Shown here one piece after another: positions 3,150 through 43,427 of a stretch of DNA of 64,000 nucleotides. This DNA comes from Dehalococcoidia bacterium (GTDB lineage: Bacteria > Chloroflexota > Dehalococcoidia > Bin125), in NCBI GenBank assembly GCA_963422755.1, contig OY730488.1, one strand, 5' to 3'. Both the position numbers and the translations under genes were made by a program. Below the pieces are notes generated by a model. The model was not told the origin of the DNA. It was given only the letters and a program-made list of their open reading frames with translations, and did not search any database. Position 1 is the stretch's first letter. Each line of letters opens with the position of its first letter.

Positions 3150-3153
3150 TCCT

Positions 3154-10549: not shown

Positions 10550-10641
10550 AGCAAGCAACTCTCAGCTCCCGCCCTGCGCGCGTAGGTGTGATATGGTGCG
10601 CGGCTGTGCGAATTGCGCGGCTGCATCCCGGAGGAGGGGCC

Positions 10642-11697: not shown

Positions 11698-11734
11698 GGC
11701 CACCACACGGCAGGCGGCGCGCTAGGCTACCTCC

Positions 11735-15125: not shown

Positions 15126-18100
15126 AGCGCAGCGCATCGGCAATCGTGATCCGCGCCGCCTGTCGCGCTGGGAAGTATGTCAGCACCAACGACGCCGCGA
15201 ACGCGCCGAACAGCACCGGCAGGATCGTGCCCAGCGGGACGTTCATGGCAATGTCGCCGAACGTGCCCTCAGCGAACAGTCGCCAAGCCATCCCCAACGC
15301 CAGCGCCGTGCCGAGCCCCAGCCCGAGCAGCGCGATAAAGGCCATCTCGACCATCAGCTCGAACCCTACCAACCGCGCCTGGAATCCGATCGCGCGCAGC
15401 ACGCCGATCTGTTGCCGCCGCTCGACCACCGCGCGCAAAGCGATCACGCCCAACGCCGCCAGCCCGGCCACAAGCCCGATCCCGATGAAACCCTGGAAGA
15501 GCGCCAGGATCGACGACTGCACCCTCTGCTGATCCTCCAGCTCGCCCTTGATGTCAACAGCCACGATCCGCAGCTCACGTTCGATGCCTTGCGCCACTTC
15601 CAGTGAGTCGTCGCCCGATATCGTCGAGATGTAATGCCGTATGAGCTCAGGTGGGCCAGCCACGTCACGTGCGATCTGCATCGGCGTCAGGAAGGTCGGC
15701 AGATTATTCTCTTCACCGTCCAAATCGACCGCGGTGCCGCCGATAAAGTCGAGTACGCCGATCACCTCCACCTGGCGTGCAGAATCGCCCAGCCCCAGTT
15801 CCACCACGATGCGCGGCAACCGCTCCGAGGAGTCATCGCTGACCGAGTCGGGGGCTGACCATGGATCGAGGCTGCTGCCGCCGCCAAACCCAGCGAAGCC
15901 GCCCTCCAAGGCATCGGCTGTGGCGACCGCCACCGGTTCGCCGCGACGCAATGCATCCCAGACATCTTCCGCGCTGTCGTAGCGATAGGAGATCGCCAGG
16001 AAGCCGATCTCCTGTCCGTCGATAAAGGCCTGGTTCACCCCACCGAGCACCACCCCGTCACGATCGCCCACCGCCACGCGATCGAGGTCAGTCTCGATCG
16101 GCTGCACATTGCCGCCAGCATCGAGGATGGGGCGATCGTCTACCGTGCTCCACTGCTCGGTCAGAACGGTGACGGCGTACGTCCCTGGCAGCCTCGCGAC
16201 GTCGATGCGGCCGGTCTGCTCGATGCGCTCCAGCACATCATCAGCGCCACGCTCCCTGAGCTCAGCGCTGATGTCGGACACTGCGTTCACGTCTGTGTTC
16301 CAGGCGAGGACTTCGAATCCACCCGCGCTATCGCTGCCGGTGAACGCCTCGCTGAAGGACGAATTGATCGTGGCAAAGTTGACCAGCGCAAACGTGATCA
16401 GCGTGATCATCGCGATGGTCATCCCAGTCCGATACCGGGCGGCGGCTGGATACGCGGCGGCCGTGCGAATCACCGGCGCCATTCGCCCAATCCCGCCGAC
16501 TACGTTGCGAATCGCTCCAACGATCAGATCCAGATTGAACACCAACAGCAGCGTGCCAGCGGCAGTCAACATCGTGCCGGCGAGGACGAACAACTCAGGT
16601 CCGCCATCGAGACGCACGCTGAAGACGTCCTCATGCCAGTAGCTCGGAATGAACCAGATAAACAGCACGAATCCCGCACCGAGCGTGTACAGCGCCCGCT
16701 GGGGGAGACGGCGCCCGCCCAGCCGTAGCTTGTTCAGCCCCATCACCACACCCAGCGGCACAAGCGAGACACCGGTCATGTAGGGGAATAGCACCTCCTG
16801 CCCCAACCCAAGATCAAAGAGATACAACCCACCGACGATAAACAGTGCCCACCACTGTGGATTCCACTGCATCAAGCGCCAGCCCAGAAACATTGTCCAG
16901 GGCACGAGCCGGCGCGCTCCGCGGGTTCCGATCAGCCGCAGCACCAGCGCGATCGGCGCGCCGATGATCAGCGTCAGCGGCGTCAGGATCAGCAGCCCGA
17001 GACCGATCGCGGTGGTAAAGACACCCAACACATTGCGCAGCACCCGCCGCAACGTGAGCGGATGCGTCTCCTCATACTGCGACTCCGGGATGTCGCGAAT
17101 CGCGGCGACAATATTGAGCCGCGCCGCGCGAAAACTGGAGATCACCACGGTGATAAATGTGATCACAACGCCGATCCCGGCTGAGATCACGAGGCTCTTC
17201 AGCGTCACGGTCCAGGTGAATTGGAAGCCGAAGCTCTCGAATCCCTGATTGAGCACCGCGATCATCCCGATCGCAAACAGCAGCCCCAACACGACGCCCA
17301 GCACCGCCGCGCCCAGGTTGTAGACCATGCCTTCGGAGATGAACATCTGGATCAGATCGTTGCGTTGCATGCCGACCGCGCGCGCGATGCCCATCTCCGG
17401 CTTCCGCTCCTCCGCCAGCATGGCGAAGATCAGGAAGATCAGCAGCACACCCGCCGCCACCGAGAACGACCCCATGAACAAGAACAGCAACGTCAGACCG
17501 GCCGCGACCAATTCCGCAAACTCTAACGTATCTGCCTTGACCGGCTCGACCTCGTACCGCTCAACGCCGTTGCTGAGATACGTCTCGGGCGAGCGCCCCG
17601 CCAATCGGCCGAGCGCCACGGTGATCTCGGCCTCCAGCGCGTCAGACGACTCCAGTCCCCCGACTACACCGCCCACTGCACTGACAATGACCACCGACCA
17701 CTCGCCCGGCGGCGCAATGGCTGGACCGAGCAGCTGTTCAAAGACCGACACGTCCACGACGCCGCCGGCACTGCTACTCGCCCCCGTATCACCGCTCAGC
17801 GCACTATCGACCGCGACATCCGCAACGACGAACTGGCGTTCGCTCGCCCGTACGTAGAGGCTGATCGTGTCGCCAGGCTCAGCATCCAATTCTCGCGCCG
17901 CCGACCGATTGATCACGATCTGATCAGCTGACAACGCGCCCAGATCGATCTGCTCACCATCGAGGTTGGGCAGCGTCTCCAGTCGCATGATCACATCAGA
18001 GTCGAGACCGGTCAGGACAAACTGCGTCTCGATCTGTCCAGCCGTGCGATGCTCGGCTGGCACCTGCTCCCAACGGACTCCGAAAACCGCGTCGACGCGC

Positions 18101-18480
18101 TCGTCGGAACCGATCTCGGCTCGGAGATCATCCAGCACCTGCGCTGGTAGGGCGTCGCTCTCGTCATCGGCCGAGGCAGCGCCCGCGCTGCTGGACACAA
18201 TGTGATCGATCCGTTGCAATCCGTCCAGTGCGACGTTGCGGATGCTGACCGCGAGCGAATCGCCTGTCGAAAAGGCGATCGTGACGATGACTGTGGCCAG
18301 CGTCAGGCCCATCGTCACGAGCACGGTCTGCGCACGCCGGCGCGGGATGTTGCGCAGTCCCACCCGCACGAGAATCGGGCGCTTCAGGAAAATAAACGCA
18401 ATCACGCCAGCGGCGACGCCAACGATTGCCACCACGATCCACATCAACTGAATCGTCGGTAAACCAAAGATTTCTTCCAT
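15118..18480 (-). CDS. Large ABC-transporter permease with duplicated FtsX domains (MacB/YbbP-like)
   Basis: The 1120-aa protein begins with a TM helix and has two FtsX-type 4-TM bundles separated by large extracytoplasmic domains. Confidence 0.85.
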   Translation of the reverse strand: MEEIFGLPTIQLMWIVVAIVGVAAGVIAFIFLKRPILVRVGLRNIPRRRAQTVLVTMGLTLATVIVTIAFSTGDSLAVSIRNVALDGLQRIDHIVSSSAGAASADDESDALPAQVLDDLRAEIGSDERVDAVFGVRWEQVPAEHRTAGQIETQFVLTGLDSDVIMRLETLPNLDGEQIDLGALSADQIVINRSAARELDAEPGDTISLYVRASERQFVVADVAVDSALSGDTGASSSAGGVVDVSVFEQLLGPAIAPPGEWSVVIVSAVGGVVGGLESSDALEAEITVALGRLAGRSPETYLSNGVERYEVEPVKADTLEFAELVAAGLTLLFLFMGSFSVAAGVLLIFLIFAMLAEERKPEMGIARAVGMQRNDLIQMFISEGMVYNLGAAVLGVVLGLLFAIGMIAVLNQGFESFGFQFTWTVTLKSLVISAGIGVVITFITVVISSFRAARLNIVAAIRDIPESQYEETHPLTLRRVLRNVLGVFTTAIGLGLLILTPLTLIIGAPIALVLRLIGTRGARRLVPWTMFLGWRLMQWNPQWWALFIVGGLYLFDLGLGQEVLFPYMTGVSLVPLGVVMGLNKLRLGGRRLPQRALYTLGAGFVLFIWFIPSYWHEDVFSVRLDGGPELFVLAGTMLTAAGTLLLVFNLDLIVGAIRNVVGGIGRMAPVIRTAAAYPAAARYRTGMTIAMITLITFALVNFATINSSFSEAFTGSDSAGGFEVLAWNTDVNAVSDISAELRERGADDVLERIEQTGRIDVARLPGTYAVTVLTEQWSTVDDRPILDAGGNVQPIETDLDRVAVGDRDGVVLGGVNQAFIDGQEIGFLAISYRYDSAEDVWDALRRGEPVAVATADALEGGFAGFGGGSSLDPWSAPDSVSDDSSERLPRIVVELGLGDSARQVEVIGVLDFIGGTAVDLDGEENNLPTFLTPMQIARDVAGPPELIRHYISTISGDDSLEVAQGIERELRIVAVDIKGELEDQQRVQSSILALFQGFIGIGLVAGLAALGVIALRAVVERRQQIGVLRAIGFQARLVGFELMVEMAFIALLGLGLGTALALGMAWRLFAEGTFGDIAMNVPLGTILPVLFGAFAASLVLTYFPARQAARITIADALRYE

Positions 18481-18558: not shown

Positions 18559-19350
18559 TCAGCTGCCGAGCGGCCGATGAACGGTTTCGCCCTCAATCAA
18601 CCCGTCGCGCATGTGGATGGTGCGGTTGGCGCGACGTCCGATGGCCTCATCATGTGTGACGATCACAAACGTCTGCTGATTGCGCTGATTCAGCCCCTCG
18701 AGCAGCTCCATGATCTGGTTCGCGTTCGTCGAATCCAGATCGCCCGTCGGCTCGTCGCCCCAGACGATGGCCGGGTCGTTGACCAGCGCCCGGGCGATCG
18801 TGACGCGCTGTCGCTGTCCACCGGAGAGCTGCGCCGGGCGGTGACTCGCCCAATCGACCAGACCAACCTGCTCCAGCGACGCACGGGCCCGTTCGCGCGA
18901 CTCGCGCTGGCCCACGCCTCCCAGCAACAACGGCAGTTCCACGTTCTCAATCGCCGACAGCACCGGCAGCAGATTGTAGAACTGGAAGACGAAACCCATC
19001 CGCCGCGCCCGATGGTCGGTGCGCTCGGTGTCGGGCATGTCGTGAATCGGGCGTCCCTCGATCGCGATCTCGCCCTGGTCGATCGTTTCCAATCCCGACA
19101 GGCAGTTCAACAACGTTGTCTTACCGCAGCCCGACGGCCCCATAATCGTGACCATCTCGCCCCGCGACACTGAGAGCGAGACGCCGCGCAGCGCATGCAC
19201 GGGCTGCCCGCCGGCGTCGTAGGTCTTGTGCACGTCGGATGCGGCGATGATTGGAGCGCCAGTCTCCGCCTCACGAGCAGTCACCGCCCCGCTTGCAACC
19301 GGTCCCTTTTGCGGTGCCTCTGCATCAATCCTGATCGGCCCGTCGCTCAT
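18559..19350 (-). CDS. ABC-transporter ATP-binding protein (MacB/LolD-type), partner of the FtsX permease
   Basis: It carries Walker A (GPSGCGKTT), the ABC signature (LSGGQRQRV) and Walker B (DEPTGDLD). Confidence 0.9.
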
Positions 19351-19792: not shown

Positions 19793-20548
19793 TCAAGCCA
19801 GCTTGAGCTCAACGTCTCCGATACCGGCAAAGCGGATGACGACCTGCTGACCAGTCAGGCCGGGCGTGTAGATAGCCGCCGCGCCCGTGGTGATGATCTC
19901 GCCTGCGGACACGCTCATGCCGCGGTTGTTGATCTCGTTGACCGTCGCGACCAGCACCTCGGTCGGATTCGGGCGATCGTCACGGCCTGCAGCGACGACT
20001 TCGCCATTGATCAGAATCTGGCAATCCAGCGAGGCCAACTCCCGCGACTGCCAGTCATCGATCTCCGGACCGACTATCAGGGCGTGAGCGCCGACCCCGT
20101 CGGCGGCCATCGCGGCCATCCCTGGCGGCTCCTTATAGCGGATATTCGGCGCCTCGATCACGATGTGGCAATTGGACACCGCGGCGAGCACAGCGTCGGC
20201 GCCGTGGCCACCGCTGCTCGGCGCGAATTCCTGACCGAGCCGAAACGCCACCTCAGCCTCGAGGACGCAGTTGACAAACGAATCTCCAGCGATCGCGGCC
20301 GGTGACTCGTAGATCATGCCTTCGAAGAAGGGCGCCAGCACCATATCGCCGCCGACCACGGCCGCCTTCCAGGCGACCGACGGACGCTGGTTGCGCGACC
20401 AGCGCTCCCAGTAAATGCGTCCACCGTCCTCGGGCCTCTGGGGACGGCACGATTCAGGAATGAGTGGCAACGGCAGGCCGCGCGCGGTCGCCGCTTCGAG
20501 AAAATCGGCGGCCTCGATGACCAGAGCGTCAGTGAGGGCTTCAGACAT
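19793..20548 (-). CDS. 2-keto-4-pentenoate hydratase / fumarylacetoacetate-hydrolase (FAH) family protein
   Basis: It shows the MhpD/HpaH-like fold with motifs GEIITTG and EAEVAF. Confidence 0.7.
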   Translation of the reverse strand: MSEALTDALVIEAADFLEAATARGLPLPLIPESCRPQRPEDGGRIYWERWSRNQRPSVAWKAAVVGGDMVLAPFFEGMIYESPAAIAGDSFVNCVLEAEVAFRLGQEFAPSSGGHGADAVLAAVSNCHIVIEAPNIRYKEPPGMAAMAADGVGAHALIVGPEIDDWQSRELASLDCQILINGEVVAAGRDDRPNPTEVLVATVNEINNRGMSVSAGEIITTGAAAIYTPGLTGQQVVIRFAGIGDVELKLA

Positions 20549-20644: not shown

Positions 20645-21211
20645 ATGTCGACGCCACCGCGCCCCATGAACGAACTGGTCGAGGCTCTGGTCTCGCTCGG
20701 GACCGATGAGATCGACCACAGCGGCCACGACTTCCTCAGCCACTTACGCGCCGTCAGCGATCTGCTAGCCGCGCACGGACACGATGCTGAACTCACCGCC
20801 GCCGGCCTCTTCCATTCGATCTACGGTACGGAGAAGTTCCAGAGCTTCGCCTTCCCGCTCAGCCAGCGCGACCGCGTGCGCACGCTGATCGGCGAGCGGG
20901 CAGAACGAATCGCTTGGCTGAACTGCATCATGGACCGCGCCACCTTCGACGCCGCCGTCTCCCGCGCCCTCGACGGAGAATCAACCCTGGCGATCAGCGA
21001 CCGCGCAGGCAATCCACCGATCCCAGTGAGCATCGACCAGCTCCGCGACCTAGCGACCGTGCATCTCTTCGACTGGTTGGAACAGGTCGAACGGTCCGAG
21101 TTCGGCTGGGGCTACCGCCGTGAGGCGTACCGTGAGATGGCAGTGCTGGTTGGCGCTGAGGACCTCTACGCAGATGTCTTCGCGCACGAGCCGGCAGTGT
21201 CAGGGCACTAG
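20645..21211 (+). CDS. Hypothetical protein (possibly HD-like)
   Basis: The 188-aa ORF sits immediately upstream of the thiolase gene. It has His-rich motifs (SHLRAVSDLLAAHGHD, LFHSIYGTEKF). Confidence 0.5.
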   Translation: MSTPPRPMNELVEALVSLGTDEIDHSGHDFLSHLRAVSDLLAAHGHDAELTAAGLFHSIYGTEKFQSFAFPLSQRDRVRTLIGERAERIAWLNCIMDRATFDAAVSRALDGESTLAISDRAGNPPIPVSIDQLRDLATVHLFDWLEQVERSEFGWGYRREAYREMAVLVGAEDLYADVFAHEPAVSGH

Positions 21212-21256
21212 ACTGCCCACGCGCAGCCAGAGGTCAGCAACTGGAGAGGAATTCGC

Positions 21257-22516
21257 ATGAGCGACATTGACGCGACGGCAGGCAAGTACCTGCGCGACCA
21301 GTACGCCATCATCGGCGTCGGCGAGACCACATACACGCGCGGATCGGGGATGACCACCCGCGCGCTCGGCACCTGGGCGATCAAGAACGCAATGGACGAC
21401 GCCGGCATTCCCGCTAGGGAGATCGACGGCATGATGTCGTATGCCGGCAACGATTCCACCGCCTCCACGATGCTCGCCGGCGACCTCGGCATCCGCCTCA
21501 ACTTCTATATGGACGTGCAAGGCGGCGGCTCCTCCTCGGAAGCCTTGATCGGCCTCGCGATCGGTGCGATCGAGGCGGGGATGTGCGAGACGGTTGTCGT
21601 CTTCCGCTCGATGAACGGGTTCTCGCAGGTGCGGATCGGTGGTACCGGCGCGCGCGCCTCGATGCCGGTCGGCGGCGACGCCCTGCACGGGGCCGCCTAC
21701 GGATGGTTCTCAGCGGGGCAAAACTTCTCGCCCACATTCATGCGCCACATGTACGACTACGGCACCACGCCCGAGCAAGTGGCGATGGTCAAGGTGATCC
21801 ACTCCGAGCACGCTTCGAACAACCCCAAGGCCTACTACAAGCAGCGCGTGACGGTCGAAGACGTGGTCAACTCACGCATGATCTGCAAGCCGCTGCACCT
21901 GCTTGACTGCTGCGTCGAGACCGACAACGCGACCGCGCTGATCGTGACATCGGTCGACAAGGCCTACGACTACAGGAATACGCCGGCACGTATCCTCGGC
22001 GTCGCTGGACGCGTCTGCAAACCGCGCATTGACATGCATTTCCAGCACGGTCCGATCTCGACCGTCGCCGGGCACTACATCAAAGACATCATCTACCGCA
22101 ACGCCGGCGTGGGGCCTGAGGACATCCAGTCCACTGGCGCCTACGACGCTTTCACCTTCACCTCGATGCTGCAGCTGGAGGACTATGGCTTCTGCGCCAA
22201 GGGCGAGGGCGGTGACTACGTCTCCTCGGGCATCATGCGACTCGGCAGCGAACGTCCCAACAACACCTCGGGCGGCCACCTCTGCGAGGGCTACACGCAC
22301 GGGATGAACATGATCATCGAGAACGTGCGCCAGCTGCGCGGCGAGGTCGACGACTACTGCCCAACCGACGAAGACGGCAAGAAGCAGCACACCTTCAACT
22401 ACGCCGAGCCCGCCAGCGGCGGCGGCTGCCGCCAGGTACCCGACCTCGAGATCACGCAGAATCTCGGCTGGGCGATGCCCGGCACCGGCTCGTCGCTGAT
22501 CATGCGCAAGGGATAG
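21257..22516 (+). CDS. Thiolase-like protein of the SCP-x / nonspecific lipid-transfer-protein type
   Basis: It has a thiolase fold with an active-site region (CETVVVFR) and C-terminal GGHLCEGYTHGMN. It is followed by a DUF35 gene, the usual SCP-x partner. Confidence 0.85.
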   Translation: MSDIDATAGKYLRDQYAIIGVGETTYTRGSGMTTRALGTWAIKNAMDDAGIPAREIDGMMSYAGNDSTASTMLAGDLGIRLNFYMDVQGGGSSSEALIGLAIGAIEAGMCETVVVFRSMNGFSQVRIGGTGARASMPVGGDALHGAAYGWFSAGQNFSPTFMRHMYDYGTTPEQVAMVKVIHSEHASNNPKAYYKQRVTVEDVVNSRMICKPLHLLDCCVETDNATALIVTSVDKAYDYRNTPARILGVAGRVCKPRIDMHFQHGPISTVAGHYIKDIIYRNAGVGPEDIQSTGAYDAFTFTSMLQLEDYGFCAKGEGGDYVSSGIMRLGSERPNNTSGGHLCEGYTHGMNMIIENVRQLRGEVDDYCPTDEDGKKQHTFNYAEPASGGGCRQVPDLEITQNLGWAMPGTGSSLIMRKG

Positions 22517-22556
22517 CCGCCGTTCTCCATCTCGACCCAACGAACAGGAGCCGACC

Positions 22557-23093
22557 ATGCCGCAGGGCGAATATCTCGGGATGACCCTGACCGTCCTCGA
22601 CCTCGACAACGAAAACCTGGCCTACTTCCAGCACTGCTCCGACCACGATTTCCACCTCCAGCAGTGCGCCAACGCCGACTGCGGGTTGATCCGCTATCCG
22701 CCGGGCACCGCCTGCCCGTGGTGTTCAGGACGCGAGTTCAACTGGGTCCCCGTCGACGCGCGCGGGACTGTGCACTCCTACGGCGAGGTCCACCACGCGA
22801 TCCAGCCCGCCTTCCGCGAGCGCGCGCCGTATATGATCCTGCTCGTCCAGCTCGACACACAAGCCGGCGTACCCAGCGAGCATGAGGCGCTACGCGTCGT
22901 CGGCAATCTCGTGGACGCCAACGGCGACTTCGCCAAGCCTGAGCTGGTCAAGCGGGTCGGCATCGGTTCGCGCATGCGGATGGTCTTCGCCGATGTCGCC
23001 GACGGTCTGGCGCTGCCGCACTGGACACTCGACGAAGAGGCGGCGCAACCCTCAGCCCCCTGGCGCTACGCACAAGAAGTCAACGGCGTCTAG
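22557..23093 (+). CDS. DUF35 Zn-ribbon/OB-fold protein (BbsA/ChsH2-C-like partner of the SCP-x thiolase)
   Basis: The rubredoxin-like CxxC...CxxC (CANADCG...CPWCSG) is followed by an OB-fold. Confidence 0.8.
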   Translation: MPQGEYLGMTLTVLDLDNENLAYFQHCSDHDFHLQQCANADCGLIRYPPGTACPWCSGREFNWVPVDARGTVHSYGEVHHAIQPAFRERAPYMILLVQLDTQAGVPSEHEALRVVGNLVDANGDFAKPELVKRVGIGSRMRMVFADVADGLALPHWTLDEEAAQPSAPWRYAQEVNGV

Positions 23094-23131
23094 ACGCCAT
23101 GAGACTGGAATAAATGCGACTGGAATGAACG

Positions 23132-23971
23132 ATGACCGACAGCGGATTCCAGCGGTTCCAGGGCCGGTTCCAAGGCAAGGTCGCCTTGGTCACCGGCGGT
23201 GCCTCGGGCATGGGCGCTGAGTCCTCAATCAGACTGGCCCGCGAGGGCGCGGCCGTCGCGGTTGTGGGACTCGAACACGACCCGCGCGGCGCGGATGTCG
23301 TCGAACAGATCAGGGACGCCGGCGGACAGGCAATCTACATCGGCTGCGACGTCTCACGCGAGTCCGACTGCGACGCAGCCGCACAGGCCGCCGTCGACGC
23401 CTTCGGCCGCATCGACCTCTGCATCGCCGCCGCTGGCATCCTGCACGCGCGCTACGTTTCCGGCGAGGCGTCCGACAACGATCCCTCGCCAGCGAACCGC
23501 GCGGGACATGTGATCAACAAGCCCATCGAATTCTGGGAGCAGGTGCTGGCGGTCAACCTGACTGGCGTGATGCTGACCAACCGCGCAGTGGCGCGGCGAA
23601 TGATCGCGCAAGGCGGCGGCGGCGCGATCGTTAACATCAGCAGCGGCGCCGCCAAGATCCCCATGCCCGGCGGCGCTGACTACTCCGTCTCCAAAGCTGG
23701 CGTCTGGATGCTGACCCGTTGCATCGCGCTTGAACTCGCGCCGCACAACATCCGCGTCAACACGGTCGCGCCGGGTGTGATCGATACACCCATGGCGCTA
23801 TCGCTGTCGCAGGACGAACAACGCCGCGCCGCCTTCGAGCGATTCGTGCCGCTCGGACGACTCGGCGCGGCTGAGGACATCGCCGAAGCTTCACTGTTCT
23901 TGCTGAGCGATCACGCGAGCTACATCACCGGCCAAATCCTGCATCCCGACGGTGGCATCTTCAGCGGCTAA
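23132..23971 (+). CDS. SDR-family oxidoreductase
   Basis: It has TGGASGMG, a YxxxK region (YSVSKAG) and a C-terminal ITGQILHPDGG. Confidence 0.85.
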   Translation: MTDSGFQRFQGRFQGKVALVTGGASGMGAESSIRLAREGAAVAVVGLEHDPRGADVVEQIRDAGGQAIYIGCDVSRESDCDAAAQAAVDAFGRIDLCIAAAGILHARYVSGEASDNDPSPANRAGHVINKPIEFWEQVLAVNLTGVMLTNRAVARRMIAQGGGGAIVNISSGAAKIPMPGGADYSVSKAGVWMLTRCIALELAPHNIRVNTVAPGVIDTPMALSLSQDEQRRAAFERFVPLGRLGAAEDIAEASLFLLSDHASYITGQILHPDGGIFSG

Positions 23972-24025
23972 ACGGCGCGCGGCGGTTATCTTGGCGCTGC
24001 CGCGCAGAACCGAAAGGAGTCCTGC

Positions 24026-24865
24026 ATGTCCCTGCCACCTGAGGAGTCGATGAACCGTTTCGCTGGCAGAGTCGCCGTGGTCACTGGTGGTGCGAGCGGT
24101 ATGGGGCGAGAATCGTCTATTCGGCTAGGGCGCGAGGGCGCCGCGGTCGTGGTCGCTGGCCTCCCCGACGACGAACGCGGCCCTGAGACCGTCTCGCTCG
24201 TCGAGGCCGTCGGCGGACAGGCGGTCTACGTCGGTGTCGATGTGACCCGCGAGGCCGATTGCGACGCCATGGCCCAGACCGCGATCGATCAGTTCGGACG
24301 CCTGGACCTCTGCATCGCGGCGGCCGGCATCTCGCACGCTGGCTACGTCTCGGGCGAAGTGAGCGAGGGAGAACCGCTGCTCGGTGGCGCGCAGCGATAC
24401 GTCATCCACAAGCCGGTCGAGTACTGGGAGAAGGTGCTCGCAGTCAATCTGACCGGCGTGATGCTGACCAACCGCGCTGTCGCTCGCCACATGATCGCGC
24501 AGGGTGAAGGCGGGGCCATCGTCAACATCTCCTCCGGCGCGGCAAAGGCGCCGATTCGCGGCATGGCCGACTATTGCGTGTCAAAGGCCGGCGTCTGGAT
24601 GATGACCCGCGTGCTCGCGCTCGAGCTCGCCGCCCACCAAATTCGCGTCAACACGGTCGCGCCAGGGCTGATTGACACGCCGATGACGCTCGCCGTCACC
24701 ACCGACGAAGAGCGCCGCCAGCGCCGCGTCGAATCCATTCCGCTCAATCGGCTCGGCGAGCCGGCCGATATCGCCGAAGCAGCGCTCTTCCTGCTCAGCG
24801 AACAGTCCAGCTACATCACCGGGCAGATCCTCCACCCCGACGGCGGGATCTTCGTTGGCAGCTAG
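24026..24865 (+). CDS. SDR-family oxidoreductase, tandem paralog of the preceding gene
   Basis: It is collinear with the 23132..23971 product along its full length. An AAAGGAG ribosome-binding site precedes the ATG. Confidence 0.85.
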   Translation: MSLPPEESMNRFAGRVAVVTGGASGMGRESSIRLGREGAAVVVAGLPDDERGPETVSLVEAVGGQAVYVGVDVTREADCDAMAQTAIDQFGRLDLCIAAAGISHAGYVSGEVSEGEPLLGGAQRYVIHKPVEYWEKVLAVNLTGVMLTNRAVARHMIAQGEGGAIVNISSGAAKAPIRGMADYCVSKAGVWMMTRVLALELAAHQIRVNTVAPGLIDTPMTLAVTTDEERRQRRVESIPLNRLGEPADIAEAALFLLSEQSSYITGQILHPDGGIFVGS

Positions 24866-24985
24866 GTCGACCGTGCCGCTCGGTCAGCCCGGCAATCGCG
24901 GCACCAGGCAGTCGCGTCAACTAGCCAGTCGGCGATTAGTGCGATCGCTGGGACTGCGGATAGGCTCACCGGAGAGGGAGCGCTT

Positions 24986-26206
24986 GTGCTAACGCTCGCA
25001 CTGCAGCAACTGCTCACCAAGAAACTGCGCAGCGTCCTGACTGTGCTTGGCTTCGGCGTCTGCGTGAACCTCTACATCGTCGTCACCACCGTGATGCGCT
25101 TCATCACCGACGACCTCGACCTCCAGGTCCAGCGCTTCACCGGCGTGCTCTTCGTCCAGTCGCGGGGACTGACCGGCCTGTCCGGGATCGAGTGGCCGCC
25201 GATCTCCTCAACCATTGCCATCGAGGAAGCTGACACGGTGCTCCGCTACCCGGCGGTGGATCTATCTCGCTCGAGCAAGGTGTCGTTCGCGGCGCTCGCG
25301 CCACCGCCCTACCCGACTGCCCCGCCCGAGGCACTGTTGGTCGGCATCGAGGCAGGCAAGGAGGACGTCTTCCTCAACGGCGCCAGTGCGATCGCCGGAC
25401 AGCCGCACTTTCCCACTCATTCGAACGGGACCGACGCCGTATCCGCGCCGCCCGCGATCCTGGGCGTGCTCGCCGCGCGTCATTTCGCCCGCATCGCGAC
25501 GTCGACCATGGAAGTACCGTCGCCAGTGGGACCGATCGCGCTGGCGGCCATCGGCAGCCGCATCTCCGTGCGTGGCGGGGAGTTCGAAGTGCTCGGCATC
25601 ATCGAGCCAGAAACGAATCAGCTGCTGCGCTCCGCTGTCCTGGTCCCACTCGAAGAGGCGCAATGCGTCCTGCAGACCCCACAGTCAGTGACCGCCATGC
25701 TGATCTCGCCCAAGCGCGCCTCCGACATCGACCCGCTCCAGCAAACGATCGAAGCGGAGCACGCAGAGTTGATGGTCATCTCCGACCGCCAGCTCGCCGA
25801 GAACGCGCGTCAGCTGCTCGACCGCGTCAATCAGCTCTTCGACGTCGTGCGCTGGACGTCTGTTTCCGTTGCGGCGCTCCTGATCGCGATCGTCATGTTC
25901 GTCTCGGTGCTGGAACGCACGCGCGAATTGGGCACGCTGCGCGCCATTGGCGCACCGCGCCGATCGTTACTCTCGCTGATCCTCACCGAGTCCGCCGGCT
26001 TCGCTGCGGCTGGCTCGATCGTTGGCGTGCCGATGTCGCGGATCGTGATTCGCCAGGCGCTCGGCCCTGACGCCGCTGGGCTACGCTCGCGCCAGATTGA
26101 ATGGGGCGCGGCCGGCATTCTCAGCCTCTGTTCGATGCTGGCGGCGCTGATGCCCGCCTGGCGCGCCGTCCAGGTCGACCCGATCATCGCGCTGCGGTAC
26201 GAGTGA
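24986..26206 (+). CDS. ABC-transporter permease, FtsX-like (MacB-type)
   Basis: It starts at GTG. The product has an N-terminal TM helix, an extracytoplasmic domain and a C-terminal FtsX 3-TM bundle. Confidence 0.8.
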   Translation: MLTLALQQLLTKKLRSVLTVLGFGVCVNLYIVVTTVMRFITDDLDLQVQRFTGVLFVQSRGLTGLSGIEWPPISSTIAIEEADTVLRYPAVDLSRSSKVSFAALAPPPYPTAPPEALLVGIEAGKEDVFLNGASAIAGQPHFPTHSNGTDAVSAPPAILGVLAARHFARIATSTMEVPSPVGPIALAAIGSRISVRGGEFEVLGIIEPETNQLLRSAVLVPLEEAQCVLQTPQSVTAMLISPKRASDIDPLQQTIEAEHAELMVISDRQLAENARQLLDRVNQLFDVVRWTSVSVAALLIAIVMFVSVLERTRELGTLRAIGAPRRSLLSLILTESAGFAAAGSIVGVPMSRIVIRQALGPDAAGLRSRQIEWGAAGILSLCSMLAALMPAWRAVQVDPIIALRYE

Positions 26207-26212
26207 GCCGCC

Positions 26213-26956
26213 GTGAGCGACGATCCCACAAGCGCAGACGAGCCCCCCGCACTGATCTCGGTGCGCAATCTCGAGCGTATCTATCGGCTGGGCGAACAAA
26301 CGATCCACGCCCTGCGCCCACTCACGCTGGATATCCGCTCCGGTGACTTCATCGCCATCGCGGGACCGTCAGGCTCGGGCAAATCGACACTGCTGCAGCT
26401 GCTGGGGCTGGTCGACTCGCCCTCTGGCGGAGACGTACAGGTTCGGGGACGATCCGCCCGGGACATCGGCCGCGAGCAGCGCGCGGCGCTGCGCCTGCAC
26501 ACCCTGGGCTTTGTCTTTCAGGCGTTTAACCTGCTGCAAATGCTCACCGCTCGGCAGAACGTCGAGATCGCGCTCGCGCTCGCTGGCATCCCCCGCCGCC
26601 GACGCCGCCAGCGCGCCGAGCGCCTGCTGACCTCCGTGGGACTCGCAGCTCGGCTGCACCACCGACCGCTGCAACTGTCGGGAGGCGAACGCCAACGCGT
26701 CGCCATCGCCCGGGCGCTCGCCAACGATCCCGACGTGATCCTCGCCGACGAGCCGACCGGCAACCTCGACCTGCAGACCGGGCGCGAGATCGTGTCGCTG
26801 CTGGAAGATCTCAACCGCGCCGGGCAGACCATCGTGATGGTCACCCACAACCTCGAGATGGCACGCCGCGCCAGCCGACTCTTCTTGATGCGCGACGGAG
26901 AAATTCGAGAGGTCGACCCGAGTGATGCTGACGTGCAAACGTCAGGCCTGCGGTAG
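26213..26956 (+). CDS. ABC-transporter ATP-binding protein
   Basis: It carries Walker A (GPSGSGKST), the signature (LSGGERQRV) and Walker B (DEPTGNLD). Confidence 0.9.
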
Positions 26957-27043
26957 CCTGTAGCTTCCCTGCAGAGCAGCCGGCGCATCGGAGTTGCGCG
27001 CGGAAACTGCAAGGCACGGGAACAGCAGGGCACGGGAGTCCGA

Positions 27044-27550
27044 GTGTCGCAGCATCAAGATCAGACCGGCCCATCAGCCCGCGCCGACGGCACGCCTGCC
27101 GCGGACACATCGGCCGGGCACGCGCCCAACTTCTGGCCAGAGGCGCTTGAGGTCATCCGCAGCGCGCCGATCGCCCTGCTCGCCACCACGCACGGACTGC
27201 AACCGCATGTCCGCCCAGTCACTCCCGCGTACGTCGGTCTCGACGCTTACATCCTGACGACCAGCGGCTCATTCAAGGTGCGCCAGATCGAACGCAACCC
27301 ACGCGTCGAGCTCCTCCACTGGTCGACCGACTTCCGTCATCTCAACCTGGCCGGCTGCGCGACCATGACCGAGGACCATGACAAGATCAACGATGTCGCC
27401 CCGTACTTCCCGTACGTCGTGGATGACTTCTTCGGTACCCACATTCGCCCGCCGGTACTCGTCAAGGTTTCGATGCGGCGTATCTCGATCACCACCTTCA
27501 ACGACATCATTGCGGACAAACGGCCACGCATCTGGCGCGTGTCAGAGTAA
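27044..27550 (+). CDS. Pyridoxamine-5'-phosphate-oxidase-like FMN/F420-binding split-barrel protein
   Basis: It has a PPOX-class fold ([47 protein letters not shown]) and starts at GTG. Confidence 0.6.
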
Positions 27551-27618
27551 GCCGCCGTTCAGCCACACGCGCTATATGCACATCAACACGTGACGCGGCA
27601 GCAAGAGAGGATCGCCTC

Positions 27619-28560
27619 ATGCGTATCGCTTTGATCGGCCAAGCCCCGTTCGGCGCGGCCGTGTTCGAACGACTGAGCGAGGATGGACACGAGATCGTCG
27701 GCGTCTTCACGCCGCCCGAGCGCGAAGGCGGGCGCCCCGATCCACTGGCCCAGGCCGCGCGCGACGTCGGCATTACGCTCGTGCAACCACGCCGCTGGCA
27801 GCGGCGCGGCATCGTCGACGAAGACGTCATCGCCCAGTACGAGGCGACCGACCCTGAACTCAACGTAATGGCCTTCGTCACCCAAATCATCCCCTCGCGG
27901 GTACTCGATTTCCCACCGCAGCAGACGATTCAGTACCACCCCTCGATTCTGCCCAGGCACCGCGGTCGTTCGGCGATCAACCACGCCATTCTGCAGGGCG
28001 ACACCCGAACCGGCGTCACCATCTTCTGGGTCGACGAAGGTCTCGACACCGGTCCGATCCTCCTGCAACGATCCTGCCCGATCGGCCCCGATTCGACGAT
28101 CAATGAGGTCTACCGCGAGCATCTCTTTCCGCTCGGCATCGAGGCGATGTCGGAGGCGGTGCACCTGGTCGAGGCTGGCCAAGCCCCACGCCACGCGCAA
28201 AACGAAGCCGACATGACCTATGAGGGTCCATGGGAGGGCGATATCGCCCAGATCGACTGGTCGCAGGATGCACGCACCGTGCACAACTTTATCCGCGGCT
28301 CCGACCGCGCGCCCGGCGCCTGGGGCACAGTCAACGGCGAACGCGTCACGCTGCTCGGCTCTACAGACTCGGAACAGACCAGCGGCGCTGCGGGGCAGAT
28401 CGCAGCGATCGACGACGACGGTATGACGATCGTCTGCGGCGACGGTGCTGCGATCCGCGTCACCACCCTCGCCGTCGGACGCGAGCGTCAGCCAGCCCGC
28501 GAATGGGCATCCGCGCACGGCGTCGTGGTCGGCGCAATCTTCGAGTCCACCACGGAATAG
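27619..28560 (+). CDS. Formyltransferase-family protein (Fmt / methionyl-tRNA formyltransferase-like)
   Basis: The N-terminus is MRIALIGQAPFGAAVFERL, and HPSILPRHRG is the formyltransferase active-site motif. A C-terminal beta-barrel domain is present. Confidence 0.75.
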   Translation: MRIALIGQAPFGAAVFERLSEDGHEIVGVFTPPEREGGRPDPLAQAARDVGITLVQPRRWQRRGIVDEDVIAQYEATDPELNVMAFVTQIIPSRVLDFPPQQTIQYHPSILPRHRGRSAINHAILQGDTRTGVTIFWVDEGLDTGPILLQRSCPIGPDSTINEVYREHLFPLGIEAMSEAVHLVEAGQAPRHAQNEADMTYEGPWEGDIAQIDWSQDARTVHNFIRGSDRAPGAWGTVNGERVTLLGSTDSEQTSGAAGQIAAIDDDGMTIVCGDGAAIRVTTLAVGRERQPAREWASAHGVVVGAIFESTTE

Positions 28561-28588
28561 TCGAAGCGCCGAACGTTCAGATCATGGC

Positions 28589-28885
28589 TCAGGTCATGTC
28601 CTGCACGCGCTTGCCCGAGTCCACGAGCGGCGCGAATCGGGTCTGACTCAGCGGGTCGTTGCGCGATGCCTTCTCCCAAGCTGCGTCGATCATCTTTGCG
28701 TACTTGGGATGCATCTCGCGCATCTTCGTATTCTCATCCTTGATGAAGGCCGGGCGGGCGATCAAGCGCTCGACCGCAGCATCGGACTCGCAGGCCTCGC
28801 AGGCCGGCGCTGGCGCGTCCATCTGCCGCGTGAACCACTCCCATTCGGCGCCGCAGATTCGGCAGGCGTATTCGTAGATCGGCAT
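28589..28885 (-). CDS. FmdB-family zinc-ribbon protein
   Basis: MPIYEYACRICGAEWEW...CEAC is the hallmark N-terminus. The longer 170-aa ORF is an over-extension. Confidence 0.7.
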   Translation of the reverse strand: MPIYEYACRICGAEWEWFTRQMDAPAPACEACESDAAVERLIARPAFIKDENTKMREMHPKYAKMIDAAWEKASRNDPLSQTRFAPLVDSGKRVQDMT

Positions 28886-28979
28886 GTCGGACTCCTGTCG
28901 CCTGATGACCAACGCCGAACTCTCGCGATGGTACGATTGAGCCAGAGTAGCCGCACTGGATCGCACTGGAGGAGGCACC

Positions 28980-29972
28980 GTGTACGGACTGCGGACGATG
29001 TTCCTCGTGGTCCTGATGGCGGGACTGATGATGGTGGCGGGCTTCGCCGTCGCTGGCACCATAGGCCTGATCGTGATGCTCGTCATCGCCTTGGGCATCA
29101 ATCTCTACAGCTACTACAACTCCCACTCGATGGTGCCCAAGCTGATGGGCGGCCAACTCGTCACGGCGCAGGAAGCGCCCGAGCTCTATCGCATCGTTGA
29201 GCGTGCCGCCTGCCAGGCCCAGATGCCCTTCCGCCCCGAACAGTTGGCGCAGTTCACCACCGAGCACCTCGAAGCCCGCTGCAACGGACACTGCCGACCT
29301 GGTGACTGTCCCCGTCACATGCCATCGGTGTATGTCATCGACACCCCGATCCCCAACGCCTTCGCGACCGGCCGCCATCCGAACCATTCCGCAGTCGCCG
29401 CTACGACAGGCATTATGGGTCTCCTCACCCAGCGCGAGCTGTCCGGCGTCATGGCGCACGAGCTCGCACACGTCACCAACCGCGACACGCTGTGGTCAAC
29501 GATCGTCGCCTCAATGGCCATGGTGATCTCCTTCATCGCGATGCTGGCGCAGTGGGCGCTGTTTACGGCGTTCCTCTTTGGCGGCATGGGTGGGCAGAAC
29601 AACGAGAACGGCGGCGGTGCCGGTCACCTCGCCGGCGCCTTGATCGTGGCGATCATCGCGCCGTTCATTGCGATGATGATTCAGACGGCGGTCAGCCGAC
29701 AGCGCGAGCTGAACGCCGACGACACCGGCGCCCGGCGCGGCGGCGATCCCGAAGCGCTCGCCTACGCGTTGATGAAGCTGGAAGAAGGCGTCCGCACGCC
29801 GCAGTCGCGCTACGCTGCCGAAGAGATGAAAACAGCCGAGGCTGCCAACCACATGTTCATCGTGAACCCGCTCGCCGGCGGTGCCGGACGCTGGTTCTCC
29901 ACCCATCCCCCCACCGAGCAGCGCGTCGAACGCCTACGCAAGATCGGCGAGGAGATCGGTCGCCCCTTCTGA
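28980..29972 (+). CDS. htpX: M48-family zinc metalloprotease HtpX homolog
   Basis: It has two N-terminal TM helices, HELAHV (HExxH), PNAFATG and C-terminal TM helices. A roughly 30-aa Cys/His-rich insertion precedes the PNAFATG motif. Confidence 0.85.
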   Translation: MYGLRTMFLVVLMAGLMMVAGFAVAGTIGLIVMLVIALGINLYSYYNSHSMVPKLMGGQLVTAQEAPELYRIVERAACQAQMPFRPEQLAQFTTEHLEARCNGHCRPGDCPRHMPSVYVIDTPIPNAFATGRHPNHSAVAATTGIMGLLTQRELSGVMAHELAHVTNRDTLWSTIVASMAMVISFIAMLAQWALFTAFLFGGMGGQNNENGGGAGHLAGALIVAIIAPFIAMMIQTAVSRQRELNADDTGARRGGDPEALAYALMKLEEGVRTPQSRYAAEEMKTAEAANHMFIVNPLAGGAGRWFSTHPPTEQRVERLRKIGEEIGRPF

Positions 29973-30083: not shown

Positions 30084-32051
30084 CTACTGCAGGCTCGACT
30101 TCATCGTCTCCCACGCCGACCGCGCATCTTCGACCGAGCCTTCATCTTCGATCGTCGAGATGTCGCCGGGATCGGTGTCAAGCGTCACAGCCTTCAGCAC
30201 CCGACGCATAATCTTGCCAGACCGCGTCTTGGGCAGCGCGTCGACGAAGTTGAGCTCGCCGATCACCGCGACCGGGCCCAGCTCGGATCGGATCGTCTGC
30301 AGAATCTCGCCCTTGAGCGCATCACCCGCTTCGTAGCCCGCCTTGAGCACGACGAAGGCGGAAATCACCTCGCCGCGCAGCTCGTCGGGACGACCCGTGA
30401 CCCCCGCCTCGGCCGCGCCAGGATGCCGCAAGATGGCCGACTCGACCTCAATTGTGCCAAGTCGGTGCGCCGCGATCTTGATGATTTCGTCCGCGCGCCC
30501 CGAGAACCAGACGTAGTCATCCGCGTCGACCGACGTCGCATCGCCGGTGAAGTAGACCTGTCGACCAGGCACCTTGCCCCAGTAGTCGGCCTGGTACCGC
30601 TCAGGCTCACCCCAAAGCCGCGCGGTCAGGCCGGGGAACGGTCTGGTGATCGCGAAGATGCCCTTCTCACCCGCCGACAGCTCGTCGCCCTCCGGAGACA
30701 GCACGGCCCCTTCAACGCCCGGCAGTGGAATCCCAGCTGATCCTGGCTTGATCGGCAACATCTGGATGCCGAACGGATTGCCCACGATCGGCCCACCGGT
30801 TTCGGTCTGCCACATGTGATCGAGCACCGGAATCTGGTCGCCGAAGACCTCGTGCTGGAACCACTCCCAGGCTGGCGGATTCAACACTTCGCCCGCCGAG
30901 AAGACTCGCGAGAGTGAGGACATGTCAACCGATTCGGCCGGCTCGACGCCCGAGCGCATCAGCAGCCGAATCGCCGTTGGCGAAGTGAACATCCCGGTCA
31001 CGCCGTGATCTTCGATGATGCGGTAAAACGTGCCCACGCCGGGATGGTCGAGTGCACCCTCGAAAGAGATCGTCGTCGCACCCGCCAACAGCGGGCCGTA
31101 GACGATGTACGAGTGCCCCACGACCCAGCCGATGTCCGAAGTTGCCCACCAGACGTCCTCAGCCTGGAGGTCGAACACCCACTCGGCCTGACTGGCGACC
31201 CAAACCGGGTAGCCGCCGTGCGTGTGCACGCAGAGCTTCGGCCGCGCCGTCGTGCCCGACGTCGCCAGGATGTACGCTGGCTCGTTCGCTTCCATCGCCA
31301 CCCATGAGCCATCGCCACCCTCGCCGGCAGCGAGGAAATCCGCCCAGCTCATCTCCAGCGCTCCGCCGATGTTTGGGCTGTCCTCGATTCGGCGTTCCAC
31401 GACGACGGTCTCGATGATCTCCGCCGCCCCCTCCTGCTCCAGCGCGCCGCGCACGAAGTGATCGAGCGGCACATTGCGTCCCCGCCGATACGTGGAGTCA
31501 GTGCAGAACAGCACTTTGGCTTCAGCGAGCTTCACGCGTTCGGCGATAGCACCTGCGCCAAATCCAGCGAAGATGACCAAGTGCACCGCACCGATCCGCG
31601 TGCAGGCGAGCATCAGCGCGATCGCCTCGAAATTCGTCGGCATATAGATCGCGACACGGTCACCGCGCTCAATCCCGATGCTCCGCAGCGAAGCCGCCAT
31701 CCGCTCGACTTGCTTGAGTAGCTGCGCATACGTGAAGACGCGCTGGCCGCCATGCTCATCGAGCGCGATCAGCGCCGCGCGACCGCCATGTCCATTGATC
31801 ACCTGCGCGTCGAGACAGGCATAGCTGAGGTTGGTCTCGCCGCCAATGAACCAGCGAAACGCCGGCACGTCGCCCGGCGTCCATTCGAACACCTCATCCC
31901 ACTCACGGAACCAGGGAATCCGCGCCGCCGCCTGCGACCAGAACGCATCGGGCTCGTCCAGCGCTCGACGCTGAATTTCGCGGACGACCGGCCCTACCAG
32001 ATCGATCTCGGACGCCATCAGCCAACTCCCAGTCCTTGGCCCTTGGTACAT
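30084..32051 (-). CDS. AMP-forming acyl-CoA synthetase (acetyl/propionyl-CoA synthetase family). The start is at 32051, or at 32018 (MASEIDL...).
   Basis: The product has Acs/PrpE-like motifs: YILATSGTTARPK, WWATSDIGW and C-terminal PKTRSGKIMRR. Confidence 0.85.
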   Translation of the reverse strand: MYQGPRTGSWLMASEIDLVGPVVREIQRRALDEPDAFWSQAAARIPWFREWDEVFEWTPGDVPAFRWFIGGETNLSYACLDAQVINGHGGRAALIALDEHGGQRVFTYAQLLKQVERMAASLRSIGIERGDRVAIYMPTNFEAIALMLACTRIGAVHLVIFAGFGAGAIAERVKLAEAKVLFCTDSTYRRGRNVPLDHFVRGALEQEGAAEIIETVVVERRIEDSPNIGGALEMSWADFLAAGEGGDGSWVAMEANEPAYILATSGTTARPKLCVHTHGGYPVWVASQAEWVFDLQAEDVWWATSDIGWVVGHSYIVYGPLLAGATTISFEGALDHPGVGTFYRIIEDHGVTGMFTSPTAIRLLMRSGVEPAESVDMSSLSRVFSAGEVLNPPAWEWFQHEVFGDQIPVLDHMWQTETGGPIVGNPFGIQMLPIKPGSAGIPLPGVEGAVLSPEGDELSAGEKGIFAITRPFPGLTARLWGEPERYQADYWGKVPGRQVYFTGDATSVDADDYVWFSGRADEIIKIAAHRLGTIEVESAILRHPGAAEAGVTGRPDELRGEVISAFVVLKAGYEAGDALKGEILQTIRSELGPVAVIGELNFVDALPKTRSGKIMRRVLKAVTLDTDPGDISTIEDEGSVEDARSAWETMKSSLQ

Positions 32052-40062: not shown

Positions 40063-40064
40063 CG

Positions 40065-41321: not shown

Positions 41322-41345
41322 GGCGCTTGGCGGAGCGGAACGCGG

Positions 41346-41750: not shown

Positions 41751-41762
41751 GGGTACAGAGTC

Positions 41763-42953: not shown

Positions 42954-43271
42954 CAGTCACTCCTCGCCAGTCAGGATTCCCGACAAAGTCTAGCAGCGCG
43001 GGCCACGCGCAATACGGGCGCTCCGGCTACTGACGCACTCTGTTATCTGTGAGTCGCCGAGGGAGAGCTGCGATGGCGGACCGTGAAGAGTACATGGCCG
43101 ACGTCAATGCAGACGGCATCGGCCATGTCTTCTACGACCTGGCTCGCTGGAGATTGGAAGAGCAAATCGACCGGGTGGAATCACTCGACCGGAAACTGGT
43201 TGGGACATTCACGCTGAACAGCGCCTTGATCGCTCTGTTGGCAGTCGCGCCGTGGTAGCAACGCGACGGGT

Positions 43272-43385: not shown

Positions 43386-43427
43386 AATGAGCCACCTCAC
43401 TCAGTCCGCTACGGCAAGCGTACTGAG

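Follow-up and report, generated by a model that had tools for sequence, protein, structure and literature searches.

The stretch of DNA analysed here, hereafter the window, comprises 64,000 nucleotides (nt) of contig OY730488.1 (assembly GCA_963422755.1) from a Dehalococcoidia bacterium of the Chloroflexota, with a G+C content of about 65% and about 62 genes. Between positions 21257 and 24865 it holds four genes on the plus strand: thl1 (21257-22516), for a 419-amino-acid (aa) protein of the SCP-x/thiolase fold; a gene for a stand-alone DUF35 protein of 178 aa (22557-23093); and two genes for classical short-chain dehydrogenases/reductases (SDRs), the paralogues SDR1 (23132-23971) and SDR2 (24026-24865), each of 279 aa. 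They follow one another with gaps of 40, 38, and 54 nt. thl1 matches Pfam Thiolase_C_1 and SCP-x-type 'lipid-transfer protein' models, the DUF35 protein matches OB_ChsH2_C and has a C-x4-C-x10-C-x2-C ribbon, and each SDR matches adh_short and adh_short_C2. An earlier note on this DNA had recorded the same four co-directional open reading frames (ORFs) at these exact coordinates, and had taken them for a beta-oxidation module resembling the BbsAB thiolase and the heteromeric BbsCD dehydrogenase of benzylsuccinate degradation. Here we present evidence for a different assignment: the thl1 and DUF35 products probably form a two-subunit retro-aldolase of the Ltp2/Sal class whose substrate is probably not a steroid, and the two SDRs appear to be only neighbours within this lineage. 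We hold this reading with moderate confidence.

The catalytic residues of thl1 carry much of the argument. SCP-2 thiolases have a nucleophilic Cys and an HDCF motif; in the Ltp2 of T. curvata (TcLtp2) Gly takes the place of the nucleophile, the motif is Y294-D-H-F, and Tyr344 serves as acid; and CtSal has Gly, Y302-D-C304-Y, and Gln352 (PMC12329534). In thl1 all three thiolase catalytic positions are substituted (G91, Y296-D-A-F, Y346), with Gly where the thiolase nucleophile Cys sits, Y-D-A-F for H-D-x-F, and Tyr for the catalytic His. Pairwise alignments likewise put Gly at the BbsB nucleophile Cys and Tyr at both Ltp2 Tyr294 and Tyr344, and Gly91, Y296-D-A-F, and Tyr346 are invariant in all 64 of the 64 full-length thl1 orthologues. 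The signatures were read from an alignment of thl1, a second thiolase-fold protein of the window (thl2, described below), five reference sequences, and 106 full-length representatives clustered at 50% identity. The same alignment recovers the published reference signatures (G/YDHF/Y in TcLtp2, G/YDCY/Q in CtSal, and C/HDAF/H in BbsB and an archaeal thiolase), and nearly all of the 106 representatives are Cys-less with Tyr at the first motif position. Since it has no Cys nucleophile, thl1 should form no acyl-Cys intermediate; judged by these residues it cannot carry out thiolysis by that route and would not be a thiolase, a term that here names a fold rather than a chemistry.

Similarity searches and phylogeny agree with this placement. 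The best solved relative of thl1 is TcLtp2 (6OK1_A, 212 bits, E 1e-61), and the second best is 4U4E, an uncharacterised Sphaerobacter protein (183 bits, E 1e-52); scores fall to 141 bits for CtSal (9MYR_A), 110 bits for BbsB (7PXP_C, E 1.5e-30), 95-100 bits for archaeal thiolases, and 52 bits for PhlC. Among NCBIfam models the best is PRK07855 'lipid-transfer protein', at 292.7 bits, below its cutoff of 469, and the BbsB equivalog model, with a cutoff of 750, gives only 130.1 bits. A neighbour-joining tree nests thl1 within the Cys-less radiation and leaves BbsB and the archaeal thiolase outside; thl1 makes up a long-stemmed clade of its own, and TcLtp2, 4U4E, CtSal, and thl2 belong to other sub-clades. 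The phylogenetic check that the earlier note had proposed thus sets both thl1 and thl2 on the aldolase side, apart from BbsB and FadA. In the 50%-identity library the thl1 orthologues are condensed into one full-length representative (72% identity), the next full-length relatives being at most 45% identical. Two side features of the thl1 family deserve mention, namely a C-terminal insertion of about 25 residues (about 366-392) with Cys368 and Cys391 invariant across orthologues, and an invariant Cys343 three residues ahead of the catalytic-position Tyr346. The insertion and the additional Cys residues might provide a disulfide, a metal site, or an alternative catalytic residue.

The DUF35 protein is the predicted partner subunit of thl1. 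Its best match in the PDB is the DUF35 domain of ChsH2 (6OK1_B, E 2e-11), the very partner of TcLtp2, so that the likeness to Ltp2/ChsH2 systems which the earlier note had also pointed out is borne out for the first two proteins of the locus. The protein combines an OB fold with a Cys4 ribbon (C37-x4-C42-x10-C53-x2-C56), and scores 27.1 bits with the NCBIfam BbsA equivalog model, whose cutoff is 250. Cys37, Cys42, Cys53, and Cys56 are each retained in 54 to 63 of 63 orthologues. About nine of the 63 are without Cys37, Cys42, or Cys56, Cys53 being invariant, and some members of the thl1-linked DUF35 family may manage without the zinc site.

A scan of species-representative genomes for orthologues returned at least 596 loci, the best 80 of which were used here (designated by L numbers). 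Orthologues of thl1 that are 71-96% identical occur in Dehalococcoidia (two family-level groups), Alphaproteobacteria (Acetobacteraceae, Stellaceae, Reyranellaceae, and Hyphomicrobiaceae), Entotheonella, and one gammaproteobacterial metagenome-assembled genome (MAG). In essentially all of the 80 loci, drawn from three phyla, that are long enough to tell, the gene directly downstream of the thl1 orthologue is a DUF35 gene, with 56-89% identity between the DUF35 proteins. The conserved unit is therefore two genes, thl1 and DUF35, and not four. What surrounds this unit is highly variable: 126 immediate neighbours in 67 distant loci match 86 Pfam families, the recurrent ones being a LigXa-type Rieske oxygenase (9 of the 126, in Tepidiformaceae loci), Amidohydro_2 (9 of 126), solute-binding proteins (7), CoA_transf_3 (5), and SDRs (5). 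The 25 commonest neighbour families of these 67 loci include neither a MaoC hydratase nor an acyl-coenzyme A (acyl-CoA) dehydrogenase. The pair thus behaves as a self-contained two-gene cassette, found in unrelated contexts and kept at more than 70% identity in hosts as different as sponge-associated and marine Dehalococcoidia, soil Alphaproteobacteria, and Entotheonella.

Three further observations concern the distribution of the pair. In five Acetobacteraceae MAGs (L026, L027, L029, L030, and L053) it adjoins gidA (mnmG), rsmG, parA, and parB, which places it in the core neighbourhood near the origin rather than on a catabolic island. The identity of thl1 between Chloroflexota and Alphaproteobacteria or Entotheonella is 71-75%; the formyltransferase of the window reaches only 48% with its match in the alphaproteobacterial locus L028. 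The G+C content at third codon positions (GC3) of thl1 is 0.88, the highest among the genes called in the window. Together, the cross-phylum identity and the GC3 of thl1 suggest very strong constraint, horizontal transfer, or both.

The SDRs do not share the distribution of the pair. Orthologues of SDR1 and SDR2 were found only within the same Chloroflexota lineage and in none of the 67 distant loci, and only the window, L001, and L010 have the two genes next to each other. Other genes split them in 11 of the 15 loci that have both; in 9 of the 12 closest loci with both, about 5 kb separates them, made up of an efflux block with genes for a coiled-coil adaptor-like protein (942 aa), an ABC ATPase, and an FtsX permease. 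In L006 the pair is kept at 93% identity and both SDRs are absent. A helicase-like gene (1141 aa) lies between DUF35 and SDR1 in L085, and an oppositely oriented AAA ATPase gene occupies this position in L086, with other genes between SDR1 and SDR2 in both cases. The conserved co-occurrence that a common module would predict is thus missing, the SDRs being split or absent in relatives. They are part of the chromosomal backbone in this Dehalococcoidia lineage, and comparative evidence gives them no tie to the pair, although they may be co-transcribed with it in this genome. As a side observation, the DUF35/SDR1 and SDR1/SDR2 junctions repeatedly hold inserted genes in L002-L013, L085, and L086, the window representing the compact state; in L086 a Uma2 nuclease gene follows further downstream, past the FtsX permease.

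At the protein level, SDR1 and SDR2 are 69% identical to each other. SDR1 has TGGASGMG at residue 21, N142, S170, Y184-x3-K188, and an insertion of about 18 residues, and both proteins and all 24 of their orthologues retain T-G-x3-G-x-G, Asn, Ser, and Tyr-x3-Lys, as would be expected of catalytically competent paralogues. The nearest solved structures to SDR1 are glucose 1-dehydrogenase and FabG, with BbsD at rank 19 (E 5.5e-36). Duplication of an SDR together with its ABC transporter block was considered as the origin of the two genes and rejected, the SDRs being 69% identical, the flanking ATPases about 47%, and the permeases about 28%. An enrichment of SDRs beside the pair was likewise considered, since three non-orthologous SDRs (about 35% identical) adjoin it in three lineages, in Tepidiformaceae and two Alphaproteobacteria; it was dropped because the census of 5 SDRs in 126 neighbours (4%) is approximately background, the window itself having 3 SDRs in about 62 genes.

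Strand and spacing add little to this comparison. The four genes sit inside a longer plus-strand run (20645-29972) that consists of a DUF6817 gene, the four genes, an FtsX permease, an ATPase, a PPOX-like gene, a formyltransferase, and an M48 peptidase, so that same-strand adjacency alone says little. The DUF6817 gene (20645-21211, plus strand; Pfam PF20680), 45 nt upstream of thl1, was seen only in the closest loci, including L086, and is a lineage-specific neighbour. Downstream of SDR2, and co-directional with it, are the permease (24986-26206) and the ATPase (26213-26956) of a MacB/FtsX-type ABC system. A terminator scan found no site between the four genes, terminator-like sites being few and nowhere above shuffled sequence, and a promoter scan with a sigma-70 consensus, which may not suit Chloroflexota, found no promoter-like sites.

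By analogy with TcLtp2, a mechanism can be sketched for the pair. The thl1 and DUF35 proteins would form an Ltp2/Sal-type complex in which DUF35 helps to shape the substrate cleft. Tyr296 would serve as the base that takes the proton from the beta-hydroxyl of a 3-hydroxyacyl-CoA, the bond between C-alpha and C-beta (C2-C3) would break in a retro-aldol reaction, and Tyr346 would protonate the resulting acyl-CoA enolate, leaving a short acyl-CoA and an aldehyde or ketone as products. The SDRs could, speculatively, convert the aldehyde or ketone further. What the analysis shows directly is gene content, residue signatures, the ranking of similarities, and where synteny is kept or lost; from these we infer the retro-aldolase activity, the complex, and any part played by the SDRs. 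Ala298 replaces both the oxyanion-hole His of Ltp2 and the catalytic Cys of Sal, and the mechanistic details must therefore differ from those of either enzyme. A steroid is probably not the substrate, because the contexts of the pair are varied and non-steroid; it is not accompanied by any hydratase, acyl-CoA dehydrogenase, or steroid gene.

Several points weigh against a retro-aldolase. The activity is assigned by homology, at 35% identity to Ltp2. His296 of Ltp2, the proposed oxyanion hole, corresponds to Ala in thl1, which would not be an Ltp2 orthologue because it falls short of the Ltp2-type NCBIfam model (293 versus 469). No hydratase adjoins the pair to supply a 3-hydroxyacyl-CoA, and TbSLP, another Cys-less relative, has only weak malonyl-CoA decarboxylase activity and an unsettled role (PMC12329534). 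As for the exclusion of the SDRs, the short gaps, the lack of a predicted terminator among the four genes, and the presence of non-orthologous SDRs beside the pair elsewhere leave room for a functional link. Such a link would make the pair and the SDRs one unit in this lineage, in which SDR1 and SDR2 reduce or oxidise the released aldehyde or ketone, or an SDR supplies the 3-hydroxyacyl-CoA from a 3-oxoacyl-CoA, with the downstream ABC exporter perhaps linked as well. The order thl1, DUF35, SDR1, SDR2, FtsX permease is indeed kept across the lineage, with insertions, and an SDR flanks thl2-type pairs too. However, the frequency of SDRs beside distant pairs is about what SDR-rich genomes would give by chance, L006 keeps its pair without either SDR, and L086 has the opposite-strand gene between DUF35 and SDR1; we therefore regard the four-gene unit as unlikely. 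Less likely still, in our judgement, is that thl1 performs other chemistry or none, as a decarboxylase, a biosynthetic aldol- or Claisen-type condensing enzyme, or a non-catalytic scaffold. TbSLP, the Ala at the Ltp2 His296 position, the invariant Cys343, Cys368, and Cys391 with the C-terminal insertion, and the housekeeping surroundings of the Acetobacteraceae pair (gidA, rsmG, parAB) would all suit such a role, but identity of 71-96% across phyla and the invariance of Tyr296 and Tyr346 argue for a conserved active enzyme that uses both tyrosines.

The remaining explanations would assign the locus to a known pathway. A true steroid side-chain aldolase, an Ltp2/Sal orthologue acting on CoA thioesters of 17-hydroxy- or 22-hydroxy-steroids and perhaps on sponge sterols, might be suspected from the nearest solved relatives, from the retention of both Ltp2 catalytic tyrosines, and from the many relatives that are sponge-associated MAGs. 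We consider it very unlikely: thl1 is only about 35% identical to TcLtp2, belongs to a different sub-clade, and does not reach the PRK07855 cutoff; the DUF35 protein stands alone with no MaoC hydratase fused to it; the commonest neighbour families of the 67 loci include neither MaoC nor a ChsE-type dehydrogenase nor ring-degradation genes; and the orthologues come mostly from soil Alphaproteobacteria MAGs with varied contexts. The Bbs-like module of the earlier note, in which a heteromeric SDR would make a 3-oxoacyl-CoA for cleavage by thiolysis in a thiolase with an integrated DUF35 subunit, seems to us scarcely credible. In its favour, members of all four protein families follow one another on a single strand, searches do recover BbsB and BbsD as homologues, and tandem pairs of family III CoA-transferases occur elsewhere in the window. 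Yet thl1 and every orthologue have other residues in place of the nucleophile Cys, the catalytic His, and the HD motif, the BbsA and BbsB equivalog scores are far under their cutoffs, both SDRs are intact, and their co-occurrence with the pair is not conserved. The locus also lacks adjacent genes of the BbsG or BbsH type, and there is no glycyl-radical enzyme. The gene order, which the earlier note had read as mirroring bbsAB, is in fact the reverse, with the thiolase-like gene before DUF35 rather than the small-subunit gene bbsA before bbsB. In the absence of a thiolase, the logic of BbsCD, which is to oxidise a beta-hydroxyl for thiolysis, would be without purpose here.

Comparison with characterised systems helps to locate the retro-aldolase that we propose. 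The closest is Ltp2-ChsH2(DUF35), known from the T. curvata structure 6OK1 and the igr/chs genes of M. tuberculosis. It has in common with the thl1 pair the Gly at the nucleophile position, the equivalents of Tyr294 and Tyr344, and a DUF35 partner with a Cys4 zinc ribbon and OB fold; it differs in its YDHF motif (YDAF in thl1) and in that its DUF35 is the C-terminal domain of a MaoC hydratase rather than a free-standing 178-aa protein, and it has neither the thl1 insertion with invariant Cys nor the non-steroid gene context. Sal-Shy(DUF35), the bile-acid C5 side-chain aldolase of Comamonas testosteroni (9MYR), is likewise a Cys-less thiolase fold with a DUF35 partner, relative to which thl1 has Ala for the essential Cys304 and Tyr for Gln352. 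The BbsAB/BbsCD system of the anaerobic toluene pathway resembles the locus in its families, with an SCP-x-type thiolase fold, a DUF35 subunit, two adjacent SDRs, and paired CoA-transferases, but BbsB keeps C/HDAF/H and thl1 none of those thiolase residues, and no bbsEFGH-like genes are adjacent here. The BbsCD heterotetramer reportedly pairs an inactive pseudoenzyme subunit, BbsC, with an active BbsD (von Horsten et al. 2021), unlike SDR1 and SDR2. The structural-genomics 'thiolase' 4U4E of Sphaerobacter thermophilus, also of the Chloroflexota, is Cys-less as well (G/YDSF/H), with His at the Ltp2 Tyr344 position and a place in a different sub-clade; it is uncharacterised and therefore gives no information on function.

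A conceptual parallel outside steroid metabolism is IpfDE of ibuprofen-degrading Sphingomonadaceae, a two-gene unit of an SCP-x thiolase-like protein and a small partner that frees propionyl-CoA from a non-steroid. IpfE is a DUF35 protein, and the ipf mechanism may be retro-aldol-like. Plasmid homologues, including ipfD-type genes, were considered as a clue to function and set aside, the best plasmid-borne homologues of thl1 being less than 40% identical. In Tepidiformaceae a Rieske oxygenase gene follows the thl1 pair.

A class of Cys-less thiolase-fold aldolases is already known; what is new, as far as its sequence can tell, is an uncharacterised member with a distinct YDAF clade. It is conceivable, and we put it forward tentatively, that the YDAF-clade pair is a widespread, strongly constrained, and probably horizontally mobile retro-aldolase for a non-steroid 3-hydroxyacyl-CoA, and the first member of the Ltp2/Sal class outside steroid catabolism. 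Should the YDAF clade prove to act as an aldolase on a substrate of its own, the Ltp2/Sal class would reach beyond steroids. Databases label such proteins 'acetyl-CoA acetyltransferase', 'thiolase family protein', or 'hypothetical', and pathway reconstructions for Dehalococcoidia or SAR202-like symbionts would, on the thiolase-type labels, count them as beta-oxidation thiolases. The main value of the present assignment lies in correcting what is likely a systematic mis-annotation and in offering a very conserved cross-phylum cassette for biochemistry.

A second pair of this kind is encoded on the minus strand of the window. The earlier note had listed a thiolase-DUF35 pair at 41346-42953; the pair is present, but its larger protein, thl2 (41763-42953, 396 aa), is Cys-less with a Sal-like signature (G/YDCY/Y) and not a thiolase. 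Its best PDB matches are 6OK1_A (3.5e-60), 4U4E, and 9MYR_A (CtSal, 3e-47), and it scores 84.8 bits with the BbsB equivalog model (cutoff 750). It has the YDCY motif in common with CtSal and differs from it by Tyr for Gln352. The OB-fold partner, DUF35_2 (41346-41750, 134 aa), matches Pfam OB_ChsH2_C only and has neither C3H1 nor C4 zinc ligands. Its zinc ribbon is degenerate, with one Cys. The zf-ChsH2 model is still matched by homologues in L082-L084, at 59-64% thl2 identity, and this lineage seems to have lost the zinc site. The minus-strand series begins with sdr3 (43428-44240), an FabL/FabI-like SDR gene upstream of thl2, and continues through thl2, DUF35_2, and two family III CoA-transferase genes, a B-type directly downstream of DUF35_2 (40065-41321) and an A-type (38809 to about 40062), with gaps of 12, 24, and 2 nt from thl2 to the A-type gene. 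The ORF at 38809 most likely starts at ATG 40062, 2 nt past the upstream stop. The order of thl2, DUF35, and the two CoA-transferases is kept down to 74% thl2 identity (L087 and L088), the transferases are absent from L082 (64% thl2 identity), whose flanks are otherwise syntenic, and sdr3 keeps its position upstream of thl2 in all three loci. The unit from sdr3 to the second CoA-transferase (38809-44240) is thus a more coherent acyl-CoA cluster than 21257-24865.

The other tandem pair of family III CoA-transferases lies on the plus strand, with an A-type gene at 11735-13018 and a B-type gene at about 13020-14259 (ORF 12952), and is syntenic in L001-L013. Both pairs (11735-14259 and 38809-41321) had been noted before and compared to BbsEF. 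The A- and B-types were recognised by identity across the pairs (34% for 11735 and 38809, 38% for 12952 and 40065) exceeding the 26-28% within a pair, and the two pairs have opposite orders, A then B at 11735-14259 and B then A at 38809-41321. This pattern fits heteromeric enzymes, as the earlier note had supposed for the paired paralogues of the window; no other part of that supposition gained support. PF02515 is matched by three of the CoA-transferases and family III NCBIfam models by the fourth. None of the four reaches an equivalog cutoff, and all are generic family III enzymes; the best models are succinate-glutarate and succinyl-CoA:mesaconate CoA-transferases, at 132-222 bits with cutoffs of 700-750.

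Other genes of CoA metabolism that had been reported in the window were also recovered, namely an AMP-forming synthetase (30084-32051), an acyl-CoA dehydrogenase (58767-59933), and an enoyl-CoA hydratase (ORF 2878-3963, ECH_1 domain); a reported carboxyltransferase was not, there being no such domain in any ORF scanned. These genes had been taken together as a dedicated pathway. A single pathway extending over the window is not supported, in keeping with the lack of conserved co-occurrence that the earlier note had itself named as counting against its reading, because the units are separate and interleaved with unrelated housekeeping genes, including a class II ribonucleotide reductase, the formyltransferase, Sir2, M23, M48, and M20 peptidases, HhH-GPD, and cofC/cofD; the 64-kb window is a mixed chromosomal backbone with several separate units and not one pathway island. 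The closest relatives of its proteins are in sponge-associated and marine Dehalococcoidia (Chloroflexota) MAGs, and scans of the window for Rfam families and transfer RNAs were empty.

Several minor features of the window may be recorded. In Dehalococcoidia, Cys-less thiolase-like/DUF35 pairs repeatedly have very large FtsX-type permeases (1110-1243 aa) and their ABC ATPases within a few kb, as in the window (15118-18480 and 18559-19350, both on the minus strand), L082, L083, L084, and L087, a recurrence that may just reflect how common such transporters are in the lineage. Divergent from the run of DUF6817 and thl1 is a minus-strand gene (19793-20548) that has no Pfam match and is kept in L001-L013, with weak matches to 2-oxopent-4-enoate hydratase and 2-oxo-3-hexenedioate decarboxylase models (45 and 37 bits, cutoffs above 350). 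In the 1.2 kb or so between a nitronate-monooxygenase-like gene and the first CoA-transferase (10550-11734), none of the ORFs has a coding-like GC3, and Pfam gives no match for the long ORF at 10156-11697. The class II ribonucleotide reductase, with a TSCPD domain, is at 51567-54419, and Rfam detects no riboswitch upstream of it. Finally, the window has cofD- and cofC-like genes of F420 biosynthesis (57119-58742, plus strand) and a gene for a PPOX-class (F420/FMN-type) protein (27044-27550, plus strand), and the organism therefore probably makes F420.

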